This document shows positions 1,020 to 59,930 of a stretch of 64,000 nt of DNA, in pieces. Under the pieces are notes generated by a model. The model worked only from the letters and a program-made list of their open reading frames with translations, had not been told where the DNA came from and did not search any database. Numbering within the stretch: position 1 is the first letter of the stretch; each line of letters opens with the position of its first letter. The stretch is from the NCBI GenBank assembly GCA_963833125.1, contig CAWHWX010000001.1, positions 96,001 to 160,000 on the forward strand, in the 5' to 3' direction. The position numbers and the translations under genes are program-made. The DNA comes from Candidatus Bathyarchaeota archaeon. Its GTDB lineage: Archaea; Thermoproteota; Bathyarchaeia; 40CM-2-53-6.

Positions 1020-1047
1020 GTGTGTGGGTCGGCTGGTGCGCACACAC
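1020..1047 (+). repeat. 28-bp dispersed repeat copy (consensus)
   Basis: GTGTGTGGGTC-GGCTGG-TGCGCACACAC between convergent stop codons at 1015 and 1056. Confidence 0.9.
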
Positions 1048-1633: not shown

Positions 1634-2542
1634 TTAGTCTGTCCGTTTCGAGTTTACTATGCGATTTATGACCTTTTTCTTAAATCCCCCACGTTTTGTG
1701 TTGTCCGGCAAGGCTTGCTCTATTATAGAGCTGTAAAATCGCATGAACTTGTAACCAAAGCACTTCTTGATGCCCGTAAGTTCACTTTTGGTTCGCATAA
1801 GTTCGATCCTAAGAGCATCTCTCTCCTTCTCCAATTCGAAGTAGAGGTCCATGAGCGCCGCGCTTCCGCCACAAAACTTTCGCCTCACCAGACGCGCATC
1901 TTCCAACACCTCAGCATATCGCTCAACAGTAATCTGATGCCTGTGAATTCTACGCCAATAGGTTACCTTAGGAATATGAAGAATATCGCAACTGGTCTTT
2001 CCAATAAGCAATGCAAGCTGCATGTCTTCCGCGTATTTTATTGACGTATCTAATCCTTCAGACTGCAAATAGAATTCTTTCCTGAAAAATAGCTCCGCTG
2101 AACCTGGCCACCATCCTGAAATTATAGCATCAACTAATGTCTTCCCGAAAGGGAGAAATTCATTCGGCCCCTTATCGCCAGTTGAATCAACCCAGTTCGT
2201 CCAAACGTAACCAAGACGAGGATTATCTTCAAATGCTGGCATTACAGCGGAAAGCGAATCAGGCATAAGCTTATCGTCACTACCTAAACATGTTATTACA
2301 GGTCCACGTGCATGCTCAATGCCCACTGCAGTAGCCGCGGAGCAACCTTCATGCTTCACCTGAACTAACGCGATTCGATCATCTGACAATTTGGACTTGA
2401 CAACTTCTACTGTTCGATCAATTGAACCGTCGTCAACAACTAAAACATCCCAATCACTATAATCCTGCGCAATCACCGAATCAATGGCGTCCCCAACGAA
2501 ACGTTCACGATCGTAAACAGGAATCAGAACGGTAACATGCAA
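1634..2542 (-). CDS. Glycosyltransferase family 2 with C-terminal coiled coil (paralogue A)
   Basis: VTVLIPVY...VVDDGS...LGSDD; TTG start chosen by alignment to the neighbouring paralogue. Confidence 0.9.
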   Translation of the reverse strand: MHVTVLIPVYDRERFVGDAIDSVIAQDYSDWDVLVVDDGSIDRTVEVVKSKLSDDRIALVQVKHEGCSAATAVGIEHARGPVITCLGSDDKLMPDSLSAVMPAFEDNPRLGYVWTNWVDSTGDKGPNEFLPFGKTLVDAIISGWWPGSAELFFRKEFYLQSEGLDTSIKYAEDMQLALLIGKTSCDILHIPKVTYWRRIHRHQITVERYAEVLEDARLVRRKFCGGSAALMDLYFELEKERDALRIELMRTKSELTGIKKCFGYKFMRFYSSIIEQALPDNTKRGGFKKKVINRIVNSKRTD

Positions 2543-2590
2543 AACATAACCACCACACCGAAAGAACTCTGCCACGTAGTTACCGTGGTT

Positions 2591-3526
2591 CTACTCTGTT
2601 CGGTACGAATCTCTTATGCAATCCTTAACCTTTCTCTTGAGCCTTCCACGTCTCGTGCCGTCCGGAAGTGCTGCGTCGATTATGGGGCCATACAGTTGCA
2701 TGAACTTGTAGCCAAGGCACTTTTTGATGTCCGTAAGTTCACTTCTGGTTCGCATAAGTTCACTCGTGATGCCCGTAAGTTCACTCCTAAGTGTTCCTAT
2801 CTCCTTCTCCAATTCGCCAAAGTAGAGGTCTGCCAGTGCGGCACTTCTTACCATAAACCTTCGCCTTATCAGATGCACTGCTTTTATCTGCTCATCGTAT
2901 GAAAGCTCATTTTGAATTCTGTGAGGATGAATTCTACGCCAGTAGGTTACCTTAGAAATATGGAGTGTGTCGCAGCCGGTCTTGGCGATCAGTAGAGCTA
3001 ATTGCAAATCCTCACCATATTGTATCGATTGGTCTAATCTTTCGGATTGCATATAGAAGCCTTTTTTGTAGAATAGCTGTGCTGAAGCGCGCCACCATCC
3101 CGAGATTAAAGCCTCAAACAATGTCTTCCCGTCAGGAAGAAAATCACTCGTACCCTTATCGCCAGTTGAATCAACCCAGTTCGTCCAAACGTAACCAAGA
3201 CGAGGATTATCTTCAAATGCTGGCATTACAGCGGAAAGCGAATCAGGCATAAGCTTATCGTCACTACCTAAATGTGTCACTACAGGTCCGCCTGCGTGCT
3301 CTATACCCATTGCAATAGCTCCCGTAACACCCGAGTGCTTCATTTGAATTAGTTGAATCCGGTCATCTGACAGCCTTGACTTGACAACTTCCACTGTTCG
3401 ATCAGTTGAACCGTCGTCAACAACTAACAGGTCCCAGTCATGATAATCCTGGCCAATCACCGAGTCAATTGCGTCCCCGATGAAATATTCACGGTTGTAA
3501 ACAGGTATTAGGACAGTAACATGCAA
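2591..3526 (-). CDS. Glycosyltransferase family 2 with C-terminal coiled coil (paralogue B)
   Basis: VTVLIPVYN...VVDDGSTD...LGSDD; long stretches identical to paralogue A. Confidence 0.9.
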   Translation of the reverse strand: MHVTVLIPVYNREYFIGDAIDSVIGQDYHDWDLLVVDDGSTDRTVEVVKSRLSDDRIQLIQMKHSGVTGAIAMGIEHAGGPVVTHLGSDDKLMPDSLSAVMPAFEDNPRLGYVWTNWVDSTGDKGTSDFLPDGKTLFEALISGWWRASAQLFYKKGFYMQSERLDQSIQYGEDLQLALLIAKTGCDTLHISKVTYWRRIHPHRIQNELSYDEQIKAVHLIRRRFMVRSAALADLYFGELEKEIGTLRSELTGITSELMRTRSELTDIKKCLGYKFMQLYGPIIDAALPDGTRRGRLKRKVKDCIRDSYRTE

Positions 3527-3677: not shown

Positions 3678-3705
3678 GTGCGTGGGTCTAGTGGTGCGCA
3701 CACAC
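3678..3705 (+). repeat. 28-bp dispersed repeat copy (degenerate partner at 3593-3620)
   Basis: GTGCGTGGGTC-TAGTGG-TGCGCACACAC. Confidence 0.85.
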
Positions 3706-4477: not shown

Positions 4478-4563
4478 GTGTGTGGGTCGGCTGGTGCGGG
4501 CACAGGAATTTGAACCGTGGTTCGTTTGAATTTCTTGGGGGTGCGCAGTGATACCGCACGCAC
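4478..4563. repeat. Inverted doublet of the 28-bp repeat (4478-4505 +, degenerate ~4537-4563 -)
   Basis: GTGTGTGGGTC-GGCTGG-TGCGGGCACAG, linker GAATTTGAACCGTGGTTCG, then a minus copy with a short deletion in the spacer. Confidence 0.75.
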
Positions 4564-4608: not shown

Positions 4609-5310
4609 TTGCCGAAGATGCCGTTAGTCGAGGACTTGATTAAGGGACCGGTTCCTCCGGGTTCTAATATTCTCGTTGAATTTGATCCAGCCTCCCAGTG
4701 GCTTAACGCATCGCTAACGATTGCTGCCGGCTGGGTGAAGGATGGAGGCAGCGTTAGCTACATTGCCAACTCCCAATCCCCAGACGACATTCGTTCACAC
4801 CTTCGAAAACTGGGCCTTGCTGTTGAGGAACTCGAGAGGACCGATCGGTTATGGATTACTGATCTATACAGTGCGTCGATAGGACAGAAATCCAAAGAAA
4901 GATTCGCGGTTGAATCGTTGAAGGTCGCGGACCTTAGCATTTGGATAGGGAGAGAGGCGATGGGTGATTCACCCGCCCCCGAATTTCTCGTAATAGCGGA
5001 TAACAATTCAATTCTCGATAGATTCAACGCCGAGAGGAATTGGGTCGAATTGTACCTCACCCGACCCATTCCAATGGCAAAGCCCAGACAAATAACCCAA
5101 CTAATAGCGTTCATGAGCGGAATTCACAGTACCTGGGCGTACAAGCAGCTCGAGGCTGCCGTTGATGGTGTCATCGATTTCAAAATTGATGAGGTAAACG
5201 GAGAACGCAAGACCTTCATGGGAATTCGGAACATGCGGAATGTTCATTTCAATTCGCGATGGTACTCATTGAAGATCGGAAAAGACTTCGAAGTCGCCTT
5301 GGAAAAGTGA
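4609..5310 (+). CDS. KaiC/RAD55-like single-domain protein, Walker A degenerate (paralogue 2)
   Basis: VPPGSNILVEFDPASQW...VDGVIDFK...GIRNMR; AGAGGAG upstream. Confidence 0.85.
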   Translation: MPKMPLVEDLIKGPVPPGSNILVEFDPASQWLNASLTIAAGWVKDGGSVSYIANSQSPDDIRSHLRKLGLAVEELERTDRLWITDLYSASIGQKSKERFAVESLKVADLSIWIGREAMGDSPAPEFLVIADNNSILDRFNAERNWVELYLTRPIPMAKPRQITQLIAFMSGIHSTWAYKQLEAAVDGVIDFKIDEVNGERKTFMGIRNMRNVHFNSRWYSLKIGKDFEVALEK

Positions 5311-5333: not shown

Positions 5334-5361
5334 TAGTGTGCGCACCAGCCGACCCACCGCA
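5334..5361 (-). repeat. 28-bp dispersed repeat copy
   Basis: Minus strand TGCGGTGGGTC-GGCTGG-TGCGCACACTA followed by AACGAACG; between convergent genes. Confidence 0.85.
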
Positions 5362-5838: not shown

Positions 5839-5866
5839 TTGTGTGGGTCGAGTGGTGCGCACACAC
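5839..5866 (+). repeat. 28-bp dispersed repeat copy
   Basis: TTGTGTGGGTC-GAGTGG-TGCGCACACAC. Confidence 0.9.
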
Positions 5867-7213: not shown

Positions 7214-7298
7214 TTCGACTGCTTTCTGGGTGTGCACACACACTTTTCAAACGAACGACGTTCCGATTTTGACCGGCCGCACCATTGATACCACACAC
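7214..7298. repeat. Inverted doublet of the 28-bp repeat (half-conserved 7214-7241 +, 7271-7298 -)
   Basis: TCTGGG-TGTGCACACAC, linker ACTTTTCAAACGAACGACG, minus copy GTGTGTGGTAT-CAATGG-TGCGGCCGGTC. Confidence 0.7.
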
Positions 7299-7432: not shown

Positions 7433-8158
7433 TTGGCTACCGTTATGGTTCCCCCATTCTTGAAGGAACTAGTTCCCGGTGGGTTCGAATATGGTGCCAA
7501 TCTTCTTGTTGAATTTGACTCCGACTCCGTCTGGTACGAAACGTCGCTCACAATCGCGGCTGGCGCAATAAGAGCGGGGATAAAGATTGACTACCACAAT
7601 TTCCAGCACACTCCCGATGACATCAGAAAAGCCCTCGACCGACGAGGATTAGACGTGAAGAGGCTAGAAGATGAGGACATGCTTTGGATCGTTGATAGCT
7701 ACACAGTACAGACAGGAGTTGATAGCTCTAGAGACCGGTCGGATGTTACTGAAGTCTCCGTGAAGCTTTCGGATTGGAGCATCGCTCTGGCTAAGGATCT
7801 TAAGGCAGGCATCTCTGAAGCCATGAAAAAGCGCCTGCATATTGACGATAACACTGGTATCCTGCTTCAGTACAACGAGGAGAAGTCCATCATAGACTTC
7901 TGGCGTACCCGGTATATACCCTATTCGAGAGCACGCGAATGTGTCATGGTACAAGCACTCTTGAAGGGCGTGGCTTCCTCCTCATTCTACAAGCAGTACG
8001 AATCGTTATGTGACGGAATAATTGATTTCAAGAGCGAAGAACGAGAGAACGAAATTCAACATTACGTGAGAGTCAGAAGTCTTCGCGGCAGGGAATGCGA
8101 TTCACGGTGGAGGAAGCTCCGGTTGTCGGATAACGGCGAAGTCACACTATTCGAATAG
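7433..8158 (+). CDS. KaiC/RAD55-like single-domain protein, Walker A degenerate (paralogue 3)
   Basis: LVPGGFEYGANLLVEFDSDSVW...CDGIIDFK...VRVRSLRG; AGAGGAG upstream. Confidence 0.85.
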   Translation: MATVMVPPFLKELVPGGFEYGANLLVEFDSDSVWYETSLTIAAGAIRAGIKIDYHNFQHTPDDIRKALDRRGLDVKRLEDEDMLWIVDSYTVQTGVDSSRDRSDVTEVSVKLSDWSIALAKDLKAGISEAMKKRLHIDDNTGILLQYNEEKSIIDFWRTRYIPYSRARECVMVQALLKGVASSSFYKQYESLCDGIIDFKSEERENEIQHYVRVRSLRGRECDSRWRKLRLSDNGEVTLFE

Positions 8159-8162
8159 AAAA

Positions 8163-8190
8163 GTCAGTGGGTCTCCTGGTGCGCACACAC
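8163..8190 (+). repeat. 28-bp dispersed repeat copy
   Basis: GTCAGTGGGTC-TCCTGG-TGCGCACACAC, 4 bp after the stop codon. Confidence 0.85.
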
Positions 8191-9923: not shown

Positions 9924-10292
9924 CTAGTCAGTGGGACTCAACTGGAGCGCTCCCTTCCTGACAATGATCTCATCCCCACTTCGTATCCATAGAATTCGTT
10001 CCTCTTCGTGGGGTGTGGATTTCAGTTTCAAAAATTCCCTAATATGTTTGGGAACGGCCGCCCTTCCACCTCTACTGAGGATTGTTTTTCTGAAACTCGA
10101 TTGGAGCGTTCCTCTTCTGACGATCACCTCATCGGCCTTTTGTATCCATAGCAGTTTTTCCCTCTTTTGGGGTGTGTATCTCAGTTTCAATACTTTCATT
10201 ACCTGTTTAGGAACGGTCGTCCTTCCGCCTCTGCTGAGAATTGATATTCCGAGAGGAAGTTCGTTTGCCAAATCTGCACGCAGACACTCCAA
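9924..10292 (-). CDS. Tandem AbrB/SpoVT-like DNA-binding protein
   Basis: Two internal repeats ILSRGGR..VPK....LKL..TP...E..LWI...DE.IVR.G. Confidence 0.65.
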   Translation of the reverse strand: MECLRADLANELPLGISILSRGGRTTVPKQVMKVLKLRYTPQKREKLLWIQKADEVIVRRGTLQSSFRKTILSRGGRAAVPKHIREFLKLKSTPHEEERILWIRSGDEIIVRKGALQLSPTD

Positions 10293-12053: not shown

Positions 12054-12081
12054 CTTGATGCGCACCAATAGACCTCGCCGG
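12054..12081 (-). repeat. 28-bp dispersed repeat copy (degenerate)
   Basis: Minus strand CCGGCGAGGTC-TATTGG-TGCGCATCAAG. Confidence 0.55.
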
Positions 12082-15875: not shown

Positions 15876-15903
15876 GGTGGGGGGTATGCTGGTGCGCACA
15901 CAC
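15876..15903 (+). repeat. 28-bp dispersed repeat copy
   Basis: GGTGGGGGGTA-TGCTGG-TGCGCACACAC. Confidence 0.7.
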
Positions 15904-20650: not shown

Positions 20651-20729
20651 ACGACTATTCAGTGTGGTGCACACGCACAGAATCCGGGAGGGGTCAAATT
20701 TGAGTGCTCGCACCATCAGACCAACACAC
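20651..20729. repeat. Inverted doublet of the 28-bp repeat (half-conserved 20651-20678 +, 20702-20729 -)
   Basis: GTGTGG-TGCACACGCAC and minus-strand GTGTGTTGGTC-TGATGG-TGCGAGCACTC. Confidence 0.75.
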
Positions 20730-20789
20730 CCTGAAAAAACCGAAAACCAAAACTCCCAGTCTAATAGATGATTATTGTGTGTTCCCCTC

Positions 20790-21491
20790 GTGCCGAGGAT
20801 CCCGTTAATCGAGAACCTAACCACCGCTCCCATACCACCTGGCACGAATATTCTTGTAGAGTTTGATGCTGCTTCGCAGTGGTACAATGCGTGCGTAACA
20901 ATTCTGGCAGGCTGGGTCAAGACAGGCGGAAGCACCTCCTACCTTTTGTCTGCTAGACCTCCGGAGAGCATCCGCTCACAACTTCGCCGTTTTGGGTTAG
21001 ATCCGGGAGAACTCGAGAGTAAGGGCAGGCTTCAGATATGGGACTTTTACTCTGCCACTCTCGGCCAGAGGTCCCAAGAAAAGTACGGCTTCGATTCACT
21101 GAAAGTCGCCGACCTAAGCATAATTATCTCAAGAGGGCAAATGCATCGACAGCCCTCACCGGACCACATGTACATCACCGAAAACACTTCCGTCCTCACC
21201 AGATTCAACGACGAGAAAAGTACGGTCGAATACCTTTTGACAAGAGCGCTTCCGACAGCAACCATAACTAAATCCACTAGCGTCCGCGGCATCATCACGG
21301 GTGTTCACAGTGACTCGGTTTACAGGCAACTTGAGGCGGCCGCGGACGGTGTTGTTGATCTTAAAGTCGAAGAGGTGGAAGGCGAGGTAAAGAATCTCAT
21401 TCGCATCCGAAAAATGCTTAACGCCACGTTTGACGCGCGCTGGCATCCGCTAAAGGTCGACCAAAACTTCGAAGTCACGTTAGATACGTAG
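20790..21491 (+). CDS. KaiC/RAD55-like single-domain protein, Walker A degenerate (paralogue 4)
   Basis: IPPGTNILVEFDAASQW...ADGVVDLK...IRIRKML. Confidence 0.85.
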   Translation: MPRIPLIENLTTAPIPPGTNILVEFDAASQWYNACVTILAGWVKTGGSTSYLLSARPPESIRSQLRRFGLDPGELESKGRLQIWDFYSATLGQRSQEKYGFDSLKVADLSIIISRGQMHRQPSPDHMYITENTSVLTRFNDEKSTVEYLLTRALPTATITKSTSVRGIITGVHSDSVYRQLEAAADGVVDLKVEEVEGEVKNLIRIRKMLNATFDARWHPLKVDQNFEVTLDT

Positions 21492-21508: not shown

Positions 21509-21536
21509 GTGTGTGCCCAACATTGATCCCACACAC
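21509..21536 (-). repeat. 28-bp dispersed repeat copy
   Basis: Minus strand GTGTGTGGGAT-CAATGT-TGGGCACACAC. Confidence 0.75.
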
Positions 21537-23470: not shown

Positions 23471-23498
23471 GTGTGCGCGCACCATTAGACCCACACAT
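23471..23498 (-). repeat. 28-bp dispersed repeat copy with full outer arm
   Basis: Minus strand ATGTGTGGGTC-TAATGG-TGCGCGCACAC; preceded on + by AATTTGAACCATCGTCGTCCGTAAAA. Confidence 0.9.
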
Positions 23499-23673
23499 GC
23501 GCCGTTACGTCATTTGCTGCTCTCGAAGGCAAGGATAACCCTTCTCACTTGCCTGCCCGAAGCTCTAGGCTAAGGTTCGAGATCAGAACCCTTCGCCGGG
23601 TACACTTCCTACCAAACCATCTGGAACTCTTCCTGAGAGCTAATGTGAATGTAGTACCCTAGTACATTCGAGT

Positions 23674-25887: not shown

Positions 25888-25915
25888 TCGTGTGAGTCTA
25901 TGGGTGCGCACACAC
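25888..25915 (+). repeat. 28-bp dispersed repeat copy
   Basis: TCGTGTGAGTC-TATGGG-TGCGCACACAC followed by ACCAACCGAACGACG. Confidence 0.8.
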
Positions 25916-28684: not shown

Positions 28685-28712
28685 GGGGCGGCGCACCATT
28701 AATACCACGCAC
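28685..28712 (-). repeat. 28-bp dispersed repeat copy
   Basis: Minus strand GTGCGTGGTAT-TAATGG-TGCGCCGCCCC; outer arm ACTTTTACCGACGACGG on +. Confidence 0.75.
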
Positions 28713-29386: not shown

Positions 29387-29414
29387 GTGTGCGCGCACCA
29401 TTAGTACCCCACAC
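29387..29414 (-). repeat. Last 28-bp repeat copy of the array
   Basis: Minus strand GTGTGGGGTAC-TAATGG-TGCGCGCACAC, enclosed by GTTTAGTGTG...CACACTAAAC. Confidence 0.85.
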
Positions 29415-35518: not shown

Positions 35519-38371
35519 TCAGTCCCAGAACAACCTGGTTCTCGCGTATTCCCGTTCGGCTTTCAGAATGTCCAAGTATAGGTCTTCCTCTGTCCGGTGA
35601 ACCTTTCTAAGAATCCGGGTCGCCGTTGTCGGGCCTACGCCCCGCCCACTCAGAACGACAACCGCCTCTCTACCTTTCGTCTGGACCAAACTGGCGCTAA
35701 AGCAGGCTTGTCTCCACACATGGTCTTCCTCCGGCGTCAACTTCGAGTTTCTTTTCTTCTTCTTCACCACCTTCACGAGCTGATCATTCCGTGGATAAGT
35801 CGCAGCGATAAGGGTCGATCCACATTTGGGACAACGGATCTTCTGCCCTATCTGATCGACCACCCTTATCGCGTCCCAATCACCATTGAAGATGCAGACC
35901 AAACGGACTGTTTCCGATAAGAGACGCTCTCGAACAATGTCAGTCAGCGGCTTCGAAGGAACTACGGGTCTGAGTAAGTCATGCGGGATTATCTTGTCGA
36001 CAATCGGTGTAGCGAAAGGAGAGCACGTGTCGGCTTTTTCTGTGACTACGTCGACTCCAATTTCCCTGTTCAGGATCTTCGCAACTGTTTCTTGAGTAGT
36101 TGGTAGGTCGAATTTTTCGAGAAGAACCTCTCTATTCGTTTCAGTGTTGACCGGTGTTTGCTTCATCGCACGTACTAGCATCCGCGCACGGTTTGTTTTG
36201 TAGTCGGCTTTCCTTTCTATGACACCGAAGCGTCGGGCTACGTGCCAATGTCGCCATGCGAAGAGGTCTGAATTCTGGAGGGCCTCCACGAGAATATTCT
36301 CAACATCTTCTGGGGTGAACTTCAGAAGTTCAAGGGCCACAGTTTCCGGTTCGATTTTGAAGGGACATATGAGCGCTATGCGGTATGGGTCGGTTTGGGT
36401 TAGTACGTTCACTCCATATTTCGAGCTGAGTAGGGAGGCGAGTATCATTGCTAGGGTGTCGTTAACCGTACTACCAAAACACGCGTGGATGATAATGCAG
36501 TTCTCGAATTTCTCGATAATGATGCGCCGATCTGACGGTAATTGTGAATGTTTCAGCTCGGCGCTTATGGTTTCGGTGATCTTGACCAGGGCCTCTTCGT
36601 TAAGTTGGAGTTGCTGCTGTATCTTTCTCAGTTCTTCGGGTTGATCGATCGACCGAAGCTATCTGGGCTCTCAACCTGCCGACTTCTTGAGCCGTTTCAA
36701 AGCTAACTGGAATGATTTCTCCCTCCCAGCTCGGAATAGCGTCAAGTGTGGGAGCCGTGGGCTCTACTTCGACCGAGAGTTTCTCTTCGTTTACGTTGAT
36801 GATCTTCCAGGTTTGTCCATGGATGATGAAGATCGTGCCCCCTTTACACTTCCTGGACACGAATCCTTGATCCAGCGTCCCAATTCGGCGTTTCCTGAAG
36901 AAGTCGAAGACATCGAATCTCTTCACGTCAGGGATGACGGAGAGGTTTTCGTAGTAATAGTCGGAAGGTTCTCGGGTAACGGGCTGATACCACATCGTCG
37001 ATGAGTCTGATTATTCTGATTGAGTCGAGAAACTTTACGAAATCATGTAACTCTTCGCCGTGTGAAGTTGCGATAGGAGTAACAGTGTTGGATGATCTCG
37101 TAGATGTCGGCGAGTTTGGCTCTCTTCAAATCGAGTGCGATGCCGGCTATTTGATGTGCCAATACATCGAGAGCGTTGTCGTGTATTGCTGTCTTCTCAA
37201 TTTTCGCGGCTTTGGCGTTGGCGGCCAACACGGCCGCTTCCAAGAGATCGTCGGCCCATGCGCCTATGATCGTTCCCTGGGCGAGGCCTCGTAAAGTATG
37301 GCCGCTCCGGCCGATTCTTTGAATTAAACGCGTGGACATCCTGGGCGACATGTACTGGACAATATAGTCCACCCTGCCAATATCCATCCCCAGCTCCAGC
37401 GAAGACGTGCAAATTACGCCCTTCAGCGACCCGTCGTGGAAAGCCTTCTCAACCTCTTCCCGAATTTCACGTGAAAGTGATCCATGGTGGACGCGTATCG
37501 GTAACTCCGGCTTCAAAGCACGTAGCTGCGACCCCACCGCTTCTGCTTGTTCGCGTGTATTCGTGAAAACTAGTGTCGACCGTTTGTCTGCAATTATCTC
37601 CCCGATTCTCTTCGATCTCGCAATAGTTGTTGGAGGTAATCCGAACTTATCGGCATCCTTGGCGTCTTCGGGATTCGGGGTGACGTACTCGATCCCAATC
37701 TGGACTTGTCGGAGTTCAGCTGATTTCGCAACCGTCACGCTTCGGTTTGTCCCTACCAGAAACTGGCCGACCTTATCTTCCTCACCCACGGTCGCGGAAA
37801 GCCCTATTCTTTGAAAACTACGCCCAGCAAGGTGCTCTAATCGTTCTAACGCTAATGCTAGTTGGATACCTCGTTTGTCCGTAGCAAGTTCATGAATCTC
37901 ATCAACCACAACCCACATGACACCTTTCAGATGCTCCCGCATCCTCTTACCCGGAAGAATCGCTTGCAGAGTCTCGGGCGTAGTAACCAGCATCTCGGGT
38001 GGTGATCTTGCTTGCGCGGCTCGAGCGCTGGTGGTGGTATCCCCGTGCCTAACTTGGACTTTGATGTCCAACTCTTTCCCAATGTCCGTAAGTCTACGAA
38101 CAATGTCCCGGTTTAGCGCTCTCAACGGAGTGACATAGAGTATCGAGATCCCTCTCGTTTCACCAGCAGACCGACGCTCAATGAACATGTTGAAGATCGG
38201 GAGGACGCATGCAAGCGTTTTCCCGGTTCCTGTAGGGGCGATCACGAGAACGTTTCGACCCTCAAGTATGGGAGGTATGGCGATTTGCTGTATGTCGCTC
38301 GGCTCTTCTAACCCAATACTCTCTAGGTGGGCGCGGATAGGCCGGTGCAATTGCGCGAACGAATTCTCCAT
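35519..38371 (-). CDS. lhr: Lhr-family DEAD/DEAH helicase with C-terminal Zn ribbon (several indels)
   Basis: APTGTGKT, TPLRALNRD, DEIHE, LSAT, TSSLELG, QRIGRSGH, IPSWEGE, CPKCGS; split over at least three ORFs. Confidence 0.88.
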
Positions 38372-38642
38372 CAACCAACTCACCCTACACTATGCAGGCT
38401 CCAAGCCCGCTACCCGTTACCACCAATCGAAAACTGTCTAATCCTGTACTCTGCGGAACAATCATCCTGTTTACGCAGAAGGTTTCTCGTAGGCTAAGTA
38501 TACGAAGATTACAATTACGGCTACGAACGCCAGGAATGTTATGCCGATCTGGAGGAGTCCCCAGAACTCATCAGTTGTCAAGATTCTAACGCACGCCTGT
38601 CGCTAGAAAGGAAATGCCCATTTAAAAAGTACTCAGTCGGAT

Positions 38643-45916: not shown

Positions 45917-47212
45917 ATGTCGATTAGGCTCGGCAAAATCATGGGGATACCCGTACGTATCCACTACACTCTATGGCTCGTTTTCCTTCTCATCGCATGG
46001 TCACTAGCATACGGCTACATGCCCCATCAATATCCCGGGCTCAGTGAACTAACATACTGGACCATTGGAATCGCATCTTCCATTGTCTTGTTCGTTTCTG
46101 TTCTCATCCACGAGCTTTCGCACTCGTATATCGCGAAAAAGAATGGGTTGCCGATAGCCAGAATTACACTCTTCTTCTTTGGTGGGAGTTTCTGAAATGA
46201 CAGAGGAACCTCAAGATCCTGGGCTGGAGGTTCGCATGGCCGCTGCCGGGCCACTGATGAGTTTTCTCATTGCCGGTGTTCTTGGTGCGATCTGGTACTT
46301 GGGGCAATTTGCTCATCTACCAATCATCATAACGGCCACGGTTGGATATGGGGCGTTAATCAACGCGGTACTAGGCGCATTCAATCTCTTACCCGCCTTC
46401 CCGCTTGACGGTGGACGCGTGTTCCGCGGAAGCCTGTGGAAGCACTCGAACAATCTAATCAGTGCAACACGAACCGCTACGCGAGTAAGTGAAGCTCTCT
46501 CAATACTCATGATGGTTGGTGGCTTCGTAGCGATAATTTTTGGAGACTTCGTGGATGGAATCTGGATTGTAGTGTTGGGTTGGTTCATCAAGTCCGGTGC
46601 AGAAACCAGCCTTAGACAGACGCTAGTTGGTGAATCGCTCAGTGGAGTAACTGTAGGGAACATCATGACATGGCAAGCCTTGACGGTGCCGCCGAACATT
46701 ACTGTTCAACAGGTGGTTTCTGATTACTTCCTTGTCCACCCGCACGGGGGCTACCCCGTCGTCAGCGATGGGCAGCTACTGGGGTTGATTACATTACAAT
46801 GCGTCCGTACTGTTCCGAAGGAGATGCGGAGCTCCGAGACTGTTGCGCAAGCAATGGTACCTATGGAACGTGCAGTGACAGCCCCGCCTAACCTCTCAGC
46901 CTCTAGATGCGGTACACAAGATGGCGCGAGAAGGTAGGTAGGCTTCTAGTTACAGAGAACGGAAAGCTACTCGGCATCGTAACCAGGGGGGATTTAATGA
47001 AAACCATCCAGACCCGACAGGACCCTGAACTAAAGTCAGAGTGGAAACCCCCCTCAGCTACGCCGCCGGTACGCTACTGTATCCAATGCGGCGCTCAACT
47101 CCCCATTGGAACAAGCATCTGCCCGCACTGCAACGCCACTCAACACCCAATGAAGCATCATCGGCTTGCACTGCCCATAATCCTAAGTATCTTCGTTGCG
47201 CGCACTCAATAG
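45917..47212 (+). CDS. Site-2 (M50) metalloprotease with CBS domains and C-terminal Zn ribbon (indels)
   Basis: HELSH, AGP, FNLLPAFPLDGGR, CBS pair, CIQCG...CPHC across three ORFs. Confidence 0.88.
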
Positions 47213-55898: not shown

Positions 55899-55926
55899 TT
55901 GTGTGCGCACCAATATACCCGCACAC
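55899..55926 (-). repeat. Isolated 28-bp repeat copy
   Basis: Minus strand GTGTGCGGGTA-TATTGG-TGCGCACACAA. Confidence 0.85.
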
Positions 55927-59788: not shown

Positions 59789-59930
59789 TGGCGGGTCCGG
59801 AGGGATTTGAACCCTGTCGGCCACTTTCCTTTAGTTGTGGCTCTCGACCTTCGGGTATCCCCCATCCGGTTAAGAGCTTCGGCCAAAGCTGAGCCTAGTC
59901 CGCCGCTCTACCTGGCTGAGCTACGGACCC
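59789..59930 (-). tRNA. tRNA-Lys(CTT) with three introns and encoded CCA
   Basis: Exons 59930-59900, 59877-59871, 59856-59843 and 59813-59789 join to a 77-nt cloverleaf GGGTCCG TA GCTC AGCCAGGTA GAGC G GCGGG CTCTTAA CCCGA AGGTC GAGGG TTCAAAT CCCTC CGGACCC G CCA. Confidence 0.88.

Follow-up and report, generated by a model that had tools for sequence, protein, structure and literature searches.

What is the 28 bp unit at positions 1020–1047 of a 64,000-nucleotide stretch of the genome of a Candidatus Bathyarchaeota archaeon (contig CAWHWX010000001.1, positions 96,001 to 160,000; the whole stretch is hereafter called the window), and why does it recur so often? By direct reading, the unit is GTGTGTGGGTC GGCTGG TGCGCACACAC, and its left arm agrees with the reverse complement of its right arm at eight of 11 positions, as do the arms of the consensus. 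A sequence-only reading had already noted this inversion, which direct reading bore out, and had likened the unit to a dif/lox recombination site. The present analysis identifies the repeat as a lineage-specific family of short interspersed intergenic repeats in soil and peat Bathyarchaeia. With about even confidence, we read it as a family resembling the repetitive extragenic palindromic (REP) elements, kept alike by a trans-acting factor and serving as a landing pad and seam.

The window contained 18 copies of GTGTGTGGGTC-NNN-TGGTGCGCACACAC, distributed over both strands. Seventeen were detected by a register-anchored scan with a threshold of at least 17 of 25 consensus bases, and the copy at 21509–21536 was added from a mismatch scan with the 28-mer. 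With the middle six bases left free and up to three mismatches allowed, the latter scan gave ten matches in the window, compared with none in 100 dinucleotide-preserving shuffles. The two halves of the unit are coupled in the window: GGTGCGC occurred 23 times against 6.9 expected from base composition, 13 of these having the left arm at the fixed distance when read by eye, and GTGGGT[AC] occurred 22 times against 13.7 expected. Lone left arms were not in excess, because seven of these 22 were already paired with a right half at the fixed distance. Each unit is composed of two short GT/CA arms (GTGTGTG ... CACACAC) flanking an asymmetric conserved centre, GGGT[C/A]-NNN-TGGTGCGC, and a T-run often precedes it and an A-run often follows. 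The spacer triplets previously listed as variable (GGC, TCT, TAG, GAG, TCC, TAA, TAT, TGA and CAA) were all present in the window, and the TGG described as nearly constant after the triplet was found in 16 of the 18 copies, the exceptions being those at 25888 (GGG) and 21509 (TGT). The alternation of purines and pyrimidines attributed to the arms was seen at positions 1–7 and 17–28.

To follow the repeat beyond the window, contigs of species-representative genomes were scanned with GTGGGT-N{0,12}-TGGTGCGCACACAC, which gave at least 126 unique matches at a minimum of 125 loci; flanks were taken for 80 loci, which are cited below by their L numbers. Among the 126 matches listed, 112 were located in 25 assemblies (at least 25 in all) labelled Bathyarchaeia, Bathyarchaeota or 'archaeon'. 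Although 0–12 bases were permitted between the two parts of the pattern, the gap was 4, corresponding to the 11-6-11 geometry, in 108 of the 112 archaeal matches listed, 5 in two, 7 in one and 8 in one. The constant 6 bp spacing claimed in the sequence-only reading thus held in the larger sample, and the free variation of spacer length that had been named beforehand as evidence to the contrary was not seen. Six matches with other gaps (0, 1, 1, 6, 6 and 8) came from bacterial records and look like chance, because they are located within long open reading frames (ORFs). Eight matches with a gap of 4 or 3 were on contigs labelled Acidoferrum, Methylomirabilota, Terriglobia, Caldilineaceae or Ignavibacteriales, and the bacteria-labelled contigs bearing the archaeal repeat were L019, L061, L064 and L088 (labelled Acidoferrum), L035, L040, L046 and L124. 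L061 encodes archaeal TBP and other bacteria-labelled contigs hold further copies; those carrying the repeat with its exact geometry are probably mis-binned. The gene content of the window itself is archaeal, and the closest stretches among the loci listed, which do not include the window's own genome, were 92–96% identical to it. A profile search (nhmmer) seeded from the window copies and run at E≤0.01 against the window and 286 kb of loci detected 193 copies. Searches of the literature for a 14-base motif string in either orientation found no occurrence, and those for palindromic intergenic repeats in Bathyarchaeia found nothing relevant.

The inverted arms raise the question of whether a structure or a sequence is conserved. 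Sixty-seven of the 193 copies had not been selected by the scan pattern, and 52 of these, which align to the profile without an indel, were used for a sequence logo. The highest conservation was at T15 G16 G17 T18 G19 C20 G21 C22 (1.2–2.0 bits), followed by a second peak at C24–C26 and by G5, G7, G8 and T10 at approximately 1–1.4 bits; position 12 was T in about 60% of copies, and positions 13 and 14 were free. The best-kept bases are therefore those of the asymmetric centre TGGTGCGC plus GGGT, the two arms being unequally conserved, and the conserved blocks G7–T10 and T15–C22 are separated by roughly one helical turn. Pairing of the arms showed no corresponding constraint. The mean longest helix was 6.69 with the own partner arm and 6.69 with permuted partners, and a search of every register for pairing above the permuted expectation found none, apart from a trivial 0.94 vs 0.93. 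Across the 67 copies, 61.2% of cells were paired compared with 63.3% in shuffles, the covariation score was 0.101 compared with 0.120, and RNAalifold predicted no consensus pairs. The dominance of compensatory pair changes, which had been specified beforehand as the sign of a hairpin, was thus not observed.

These results bear on the alternative that the repeat acts as an RNA or single-stranded DNA (ssDNA) hairpin at gene 3′ ends, namely, a terminator, an mRNA-stabilising stem-loop of the REP type, or a hairpin on which a Y1 HUH enzyme acts. As ssDNA, a single copy has a weak fold (−2.9 to −9.0 kcal/mol); the arms of intact copies can nevertheless pair, the folding energies being −8.6 to −9.0 kcal/mol for DNA and −11 to −14 kcal/mol for RNA (z down to −3.5), and an inverted doublet at 1515–1612 folds strongly as ssDNA (−21.9 kcal/mol, z −5.0). 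The bias of the copies to 3′ ends and convergent gene pairs, described below, agrees with a hairpin as well. In contrast, covariation was absent in all registers, the best-conserved bases sit in the would-be loop and are asymmetric, and two copies with an altered arm, at 8163 and 23471, showed no fold (z +0.45 and −0.07) yet retained the centre. Moreover, the T-runs stand before the stem and not after it, copies follow homologous gene ends in both orientations and would hence give differing transcript loops, and no Y1 HUH gene was seen in a Pfam scan of 357 ORFs around the copies, which covered about 350 kb and not whole genomes (37 of the 315 called locus ORFs were outside the scan, 21 on bacteria-labelled loci and 16 on short loci). 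We consider a hairpin improbable. Taken together, the constant geometry, the lack of covariation, the retention of the centre in copies with a broken arm and the occurrence of both orientations favour the recognition of a DNA word, and the earlier preference for a DNA site over an RNA hairpin is upheld in this form.

Next to the form of the unit, its position relative to genes is informative. Of the 193 copies, 44 were at locus edges, 29 were inside greedy ORF calls and 120 could be classified, of which 43 were between convergent, 64 between tandem (29 and 35 in the two orientations) and 13 between divergent genes. Six of the 29 copies inside ORFs were the bacterial chance matches, and the remaining ORFs were 90–180 aa in length; when 12 of these short ORFs were scanned against Pfam, 11 had no family and the domain of the twelfth was downstream of the copy. 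No archaeal copy was found within a Pfam-supported coding region among the ORFs scanned. The copies thus stand between genes, mostly at gene 3′ ends; both orientations occur, and a copy may be single or part of a doublet with a second module. For co-oriented tandem pairs, the median distances separating a copy from the upstream and the downstream gene were 37 and 151 nt, respectively, and the neighbouring genes, as judged from the Pfam-scanned ORFs around the copies, were functionally unrelated. A promoter reading was rejected, as the distance to starts is not fixed in general. Adjacent copies were 0.06–26 kb apart with genes between them, which does not correspond to the evenly spaced repeats and short unique spacers of a CRISPR array, and 12 of 76 adjacent pairs were 760–860 bp apart. 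Of 189 copies, 50 had a T4 run no more than 14 nt upstream and 48 had an A4 run downstream, against a background of approximately 4.7%; the reverse arrangement of these runs was seen for 17 and 16 of the 189 copies.

With respect to orientation, the fixed polarity previously ascribed to the repeat holds as an asymmetry inside the unit, but not at the genome level, where 46 adjacent pairs across all sequences had the same orientation and 30 the opposite. Within the window, eight copies were on the plus strand and three on the minus strand left of 16 kb, and one and six, respectively, right of 20 kb. GC skew over the window showed no switch matching this strand bias, and the polarity of the copies along the chromosome is weak.

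The position of the repeat was most regular beside a family of small single-domain KaiC-like ATPases, whose ten members (called ORFs of 233–298 aa, 21–59% identical) form two subgroups plus one distant member, that on L024, and match curated KaiC models below all cut-offs. Four members are encoded in the window, at 218–1015, 4609–5310, 7433–8158 and 20775–21491, and the others at L056:2062–2760, L001:335–1228, L001:1249–1947, L004:778–1512, L070:1252–1950 and L024:2050–2871. A copy was located 4–68 nt past the stop codon of all ten genes, compared with 91 of 387 ORFs overall, five of these copies being in the orientation of the gene and five opposite. A second copy was located 45–53 nt before the called start of five of the ten genes, and the homologous 5′ regions of these genes adjoin copies of either orientation. 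In the window, the copy at 216–243 (+, 22/25 consensus bases, detected by both the mismatch and the register-anchored scan) is upstream of the first KaiC-like gene, and the unit at 1020–1047 (+, 25/25) is situated 4 nt past the stop of the ORF ending at 1015, between convergent genes, a glyoxalase ORF ending at 1056. Further 3′ copies are found 23 nt past the stop of ORF 4609–5310 (5334–5361, −, 19/25), 4 nt past that of ORF 7433–8158 (8163–8190, +, 23/25) and 17 nt past that of ORF 20775–21491 (21509–21536, −, three mismatches). Copies 45 nt before a start are located at 20702–20729 (−, 21/25), ahead of the start at 20775, and at 4538–4563 (−), ahead of the start at 4609, the latter being an uncertain, degenerate and shortened partner copy.

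This regularity gives weight to a serious rival explanation, in which the repeat is the site of a host DNA-binding protein with an architectural, insulating, transcription-roadblock or regulatory role. Its centre would be read on double-stranded DNA, orientation would be irrelevant, and the flanking T-runs would be ordinary archaeal oligo-T terminators that keep the site untranscribed or cooperate with the bound protein. Such a site is consistent with the near-invariance of the centre in at least 25 assemblies, with the spacing of the two conserved blocks, with the occurrence of either orientation relative to genes, with the T4 and A4 runs, and with the copies at both ends of KaiC-like genes. 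On the other hand, the distances to starts and stops are not fixed overall, the neighbouring genes share no function and no candidate protein was identified; furthermore, doublets, mosaic modules, flips, synteny breaks and the insertion of a mobile element, all described below, typify repeat families and not operators. We therefore judge a host protein site to be possible, but rather unlikely.

The comparison of related genomes indicated that the copies coincide with seams. Between assemblies, 13 of 50 internal alignment end-points were no more than 25 nt from a copy, where 3.4 would be expected, and ten of 24 intergenic end-points were near a copy, where 3.2 would be expected. These statistics are drawn from eight sequence pairs, with double counting of reciprocal hits, and many of the loci are short and have a copy at their centre. 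The homology of the window to L098 (94%) stopped exactly at the copy at 55899–55926 (−, 22/25), and the other flank of L098 matched a different locus. Similarly, homology to two related genomes began 12–17 nt to the right of the copy at 8163. In addition, the same conserved flank abutted a copy in opposite orientations, as seen for L107:297–324 vs L022:214–241 and for L099:301–328 vs L097:297–324, and the flip junction was exactly at the end of the CACACAC arm. Flips between paralogues were observed in the window too, at copies 1020, 5334, 8163 and 21509. Flips of this kind do not arise by crossover inside the site; exchange within the orientation-symmetric arms, or repeated insertion, could produce them.

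Breaks of homology at copies are also expected of the core site of a tyrosine recombinase, either dif/lox-like or an attC-like cassette border. The repeat shares with Xer/dif and lox/FRT sites a pair of inverted arms, each about 11 bp long and separated by 6 bp, a fixed spacing (108 of the 112 archaeal matches listed, with arms inverted at 8 of 11 positions) and an asymmetric middle; its central triplet is variable, and copies bound single genes at a spacing of about 0.8 kb in the 12 adjacent pairs noted above. The dif site, however, is single-copy, as far as described in PMC8371274, whereas the repeat is present in 18 copies in 64 kb and several times per contig elsewhere. The TGG of its 'spacer' is near-invariant, its conservation peaks over the border of spacer and arm (T15–C22), and its arms are unequally conserved; Xer/dif sites, in contrast, are contacted by protein in the arms and cleaved at the spacer borders, and their spacer is not the best-conserved part. 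The mixed orientation in arrays and the flipping of a copy against the same flank do not agree with this reading either. No Phage_integrase or other tyrosine recombinase was found among the 357 ORFs scanned around copies, and the recombinase seen there is of the IS110 type, with DEDD and serine domains. The dif/lox analogy of the sequence-only reading is thus very improbable. An integron attC site, of which each cassette has one, uniformly oriented and beside intI and attI, was rejected on the basis of the mixed orientation (46 vs 30) and the lack of an integrase among the ORFs scanned. One arm of the Escherichia coli dif site presumably starts with a word resembling the conserved centre of the repeat.

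The IS110-family element just mentioned encodes a 356 aa RNA-guided transposase and was found at L003:662–2025, on the reverse strand of L006 at the same coordinates, and as a third, partial copy at L086:329–624, all three loci belonging to one genome. The transposase matched PF01548, PF02371 and NF033542, the last with 264 bits against a cut-off of 140. The two full copies were 99.8% identical over 1365 nt and were both bounded on the left by ...TTTTGTGTGTG (TTT[T/C]GTGTGTG) and on the right by GTGTGGGTC-TAG-TGGTGCGCACACAC, indicating insertion into the left arm of the repeat in one orientation. Taking L086 into account, an IS110-family element was thus found at one point of the site, in one orientation, at all three loci. 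On three further contigs, repeat copies were adjoined by remnants of the right end, and a fourth contig held a left-end remnant. The left end of the element holds AGACCCAC, antisense to the target immediately to the right of the junction, and, 18 nt from it, GTGTGTG in the sense of the target to the left of the junction; this match to both target sides was equalled by one of 2000 shuffles. As judged from sequence, these segments fit the guides of a bridge RNA. Insertion of IS110 elements into REPs is described in PMC11208160 and PMC12288879, and our literature search found no work joining Bathyarchaeia and IS110.

In the flanks of the copies, words belonging to a second module, the B box ATTTGAACCGTCGTCGT, were overrepresented by as much as 10-fold. 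This module was located to the left of 21 of 189 copies and, as its reverse complement, to the right of 25. The B box is usually joined to a variant core, A′, in which the right arm reads GCG[G/A]GC... in place of GCGCACACAC, and the resulting doublets are either direct (A′-B-A) or inverted (A-B′-A′). Examples of the B box are located at 4506–4517 and 23515–23523 of the window and at L050:295–312 and L051:1965–1982. The window contains three inverted doublets, 1525/1576, 4478/4538 and 7227/7271. The first consists of a degenerate left copy at 1525–1552 (+, 18/25) and a right copy at 1576–1603 (−, 20/25). In the second, the A′ copy at 4478–4517 (+) has GCGGGCACAG in place of the right arm, followed by the B-box word GAATTTGAACCG, and faces the uncertain copy at 4538. 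The third pairs a partial right half on the plus strand at approximately 7227–7250 with the copy at 7271–7298 (−, 17/25). A copy at 23471–23498 (−, 23/25), between convergent ORFs, is followed downstream by a reverse-complement B box.

Several further readings were rejected. An alignment of 21 A′-B-A composites showed no conserved structure and no compensatory pair, and a non-coding RNA was dismissed on this basis. Read backwards, A′ ends in ...GCCCGCACCA with the word GGTTCAAAT 16 nt upstream, resembling a tRNA 3′ end; the A′/B variant accordingly has a T-loop-like word and ACCA at the distance expected of a tRNA, but its T stem is unable to pair and ARAGORN detected no tRNA at the copies. 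A tRNA gene or a tRNA-derived att site, which would show a cloverleaf or at least an acceptor 3′ end and a T arm able to pair, was therefore rejected, whereas descent from a tRNA is conceivable. Rfam gave no family match at the copies or in the left end of the IS110 element. An extended palindrome of the flanks was likewise discarded: CGTCGT-type words were found to the left of 48 and ACGACG-type words to the right of 45 of 189 copies, and their co-occurrence (11) equalled expectation (11.4). The window contains one real tRNA gene, at 59792–59930 (−), which has a long intron and an encoded CCA, scores 30.6 bits in Rfam (gathering threshold 29) and was missed by ARAGORN; no repeat motif follows it.

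From these observations, we favour the REP-like family, at the level of confidence given at the outset, and the following mechanism may be proposed. A sequence-specific factor would recognize the unit as a word of DNA, in double-stranded or transiently single-stranded form, and not as a hairpin in a transcript. Copies of the unit would owe their similarity to turnover or copying by an enzyme acting in trans, none being seen among the 357 ORFs, and may represent non-autonomous mobile DNA, possibly domesticated. For the genome, they would mainly serve as landing pads and as seams for recombination within the flexible portion of the chromosome.

Several observations weigh against this proposal. 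Y1_Tnp, the Y1 HUH transposase family to which REP-associated tyrosine transposases (RAYTs) belong and whose accession we take to be PF01797, was absent from the 357 ORFs scanned, which represent the approximately 350 kb defined above and no complete genome. Also absent was the GT[AG]G tag that classical REPs have 5′ of the hairpin base, the 5′ flank being T-rich or AAAGT and the only such word being GTGG inside the left arm, at positions 5–8. The apparent invariance of the centre is partly an artefact of retrieval: in 126 of the 193 copies, 20 of 28 bases were dictated by the scan pattern, and the conserved centre of the window copies had served as seed for the profile. The central 4-mers (positions 11–14) CTAA, CTAG, AGGC, ATGC and CAGC accounted for 72 of 170 copies, in classes common to several genomes. 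The well-kept copies beside diverged KaiC-like genes look more like host-function selection or constant renewal than passive decay. Finally, mobility is inferred and not demonstrated, because among the few pairs compared no usable orthologous pair with a clean-bordered presence/absence polymorphism was found.

A bolder proposal, which we regard as a long shot, assigns the unit to a hitherto undescribed archaeal system of DNA shuffling, in which it would be the site of exchange. Because its GT/CA arms read the same either way round, copies could exchange their flanks or turn the asymmetric centre around, and single-gene cassettes delimited by copies would thereby be reassorted among loci and genomes. 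The KaiC-like ATPases would be the clearest case, and the partner might be an IS110-like RNA-guided recombinase or a protein not yet described.

The distribution of copies along the window was uneven, as the first 29.4 kb held 17 of the 18 copies and the remaining part (29415–64000) only one. In addition to those described above, copies were located at 3678–3705 (+, 24/25), in a divergent intergenic region, at 5839–5866 (+, 24/25), at 15876–15903 (+, 20/25), at 25888–25915 (+, 21/25), at 28685–28712 (−, 17/25) and at 29387–29414 (−, 21/25), the last between convergent ORFs; a weak and uncertain copy, represented by the centre only, was seen at 12054–12081 (−, 15/25). Positions 1–29414 hold accessory-looking genes (KaiC-like paralogues, glycosyltransferases and ORFs without a family), and the part beyond 29.4 kb is rich in housekeeping genes such as those for RPA, the proteasome, FttA, LSM and SepF. 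Two other repeated segments were noted in the window: two tandem family-2 glycosyltransferase paralogues at 1634–3526 (−), with 74–81% DNA identity over stretches of 188–300 nt (families D1 and D4), and a tandem pair of approximately 159 bp units at 9936–10252, 74% identical, in a region where ORFs on the two strands overlap and no Pfam family was matched. An Lhr-type helicase at 35522–38383 (−) is split over three ORFs (DEAD plus Helicase_C, WH_Lhr and DEAD_assoc), which could be due to frameshifts, a split gene or an assembly error, and an M50 peptidase with CBS and zinc-ribbon parts extends across three overlapping ORFs at 45917–47212 (+), with a possible frameshift.

If the repeat is REP/BIME-like, BIME denoting a bacterial interspersed mosaic element, such systems would extend to an uncultured archaeal class without a RAYT in sight, and the question would be which enzyme or selection keeps hundreds of 28 bp words alike across species. 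If it is a host protein site, it would be among the most abundant cis-elements known in any archaeal genome. In addition, the repeat provides an example of an archaeal sequence that is naturally targeted by an RNA-guided IS110-family recombinase, and the motif marks genome seams and variable regions in metagenome-assembled genomes of Bathyarchaeia and can flag mis-binned contigs.

Among known systems, the repeat appears, by analogy, functionally closest to the bacterial REP/BIME elements. REPs are imperfect palindromes of 20–40 bp with many intergenic copies and a bias to 3′ ends, according to the text available of PMC3733652 and PMC6006769, and the unit is likewise a short imperfect palindrome of high copy number located outside genes. 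Its singlets, doublets and mosaics with linker modules resemble the organization of REPs, BIMEs and REPINs, which, so far as the sources at hand describe them, are also lineage-specific but common to related species, are hot spots of rearrangement and are targets for insertion of the IS110 family (PMC11208160). Membership of the REP class is not established, because the unit lacks the GT[AG]G tag, the ORFs scanned included no RAYT gene, which in a REPtron is flanked by the repeats, and the stem is not maintained as a structure, pairing being no better than in shuffles. The repeat further differs in its archaeal host, in a stem of only about 7 bp of GT/CA and in having its most conserved part in the asymmetric centre and not in the stem; the RAYT classes described in the available part of PMC6006769 are from bacteria. 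REP-like palindromes have been claimed for Euryarchaeota and Crenarchaeota by RepRanger (PMC12306157) on stem-loop criteria alone, and these share with the present repeat an intergenic location and palindromic form, although the portion of that paper at hand mentions neither Bathyarchaeia nor this motif. Compared with the target sites of IS110/IS1111 elements, namely, the REPs used by IS621 and ISPpu9, attC sites and transposon ends, the repeat stands out by its archaeal host, by the restriction of the three element copies to one genome and by the lack of an Rfam match for a bridge RNA. As at those targets, however, insertion occurred at one defined point and in one orientation, and the left-end segments of the element match both sides of the target, as the guides of bridge RNAs do.

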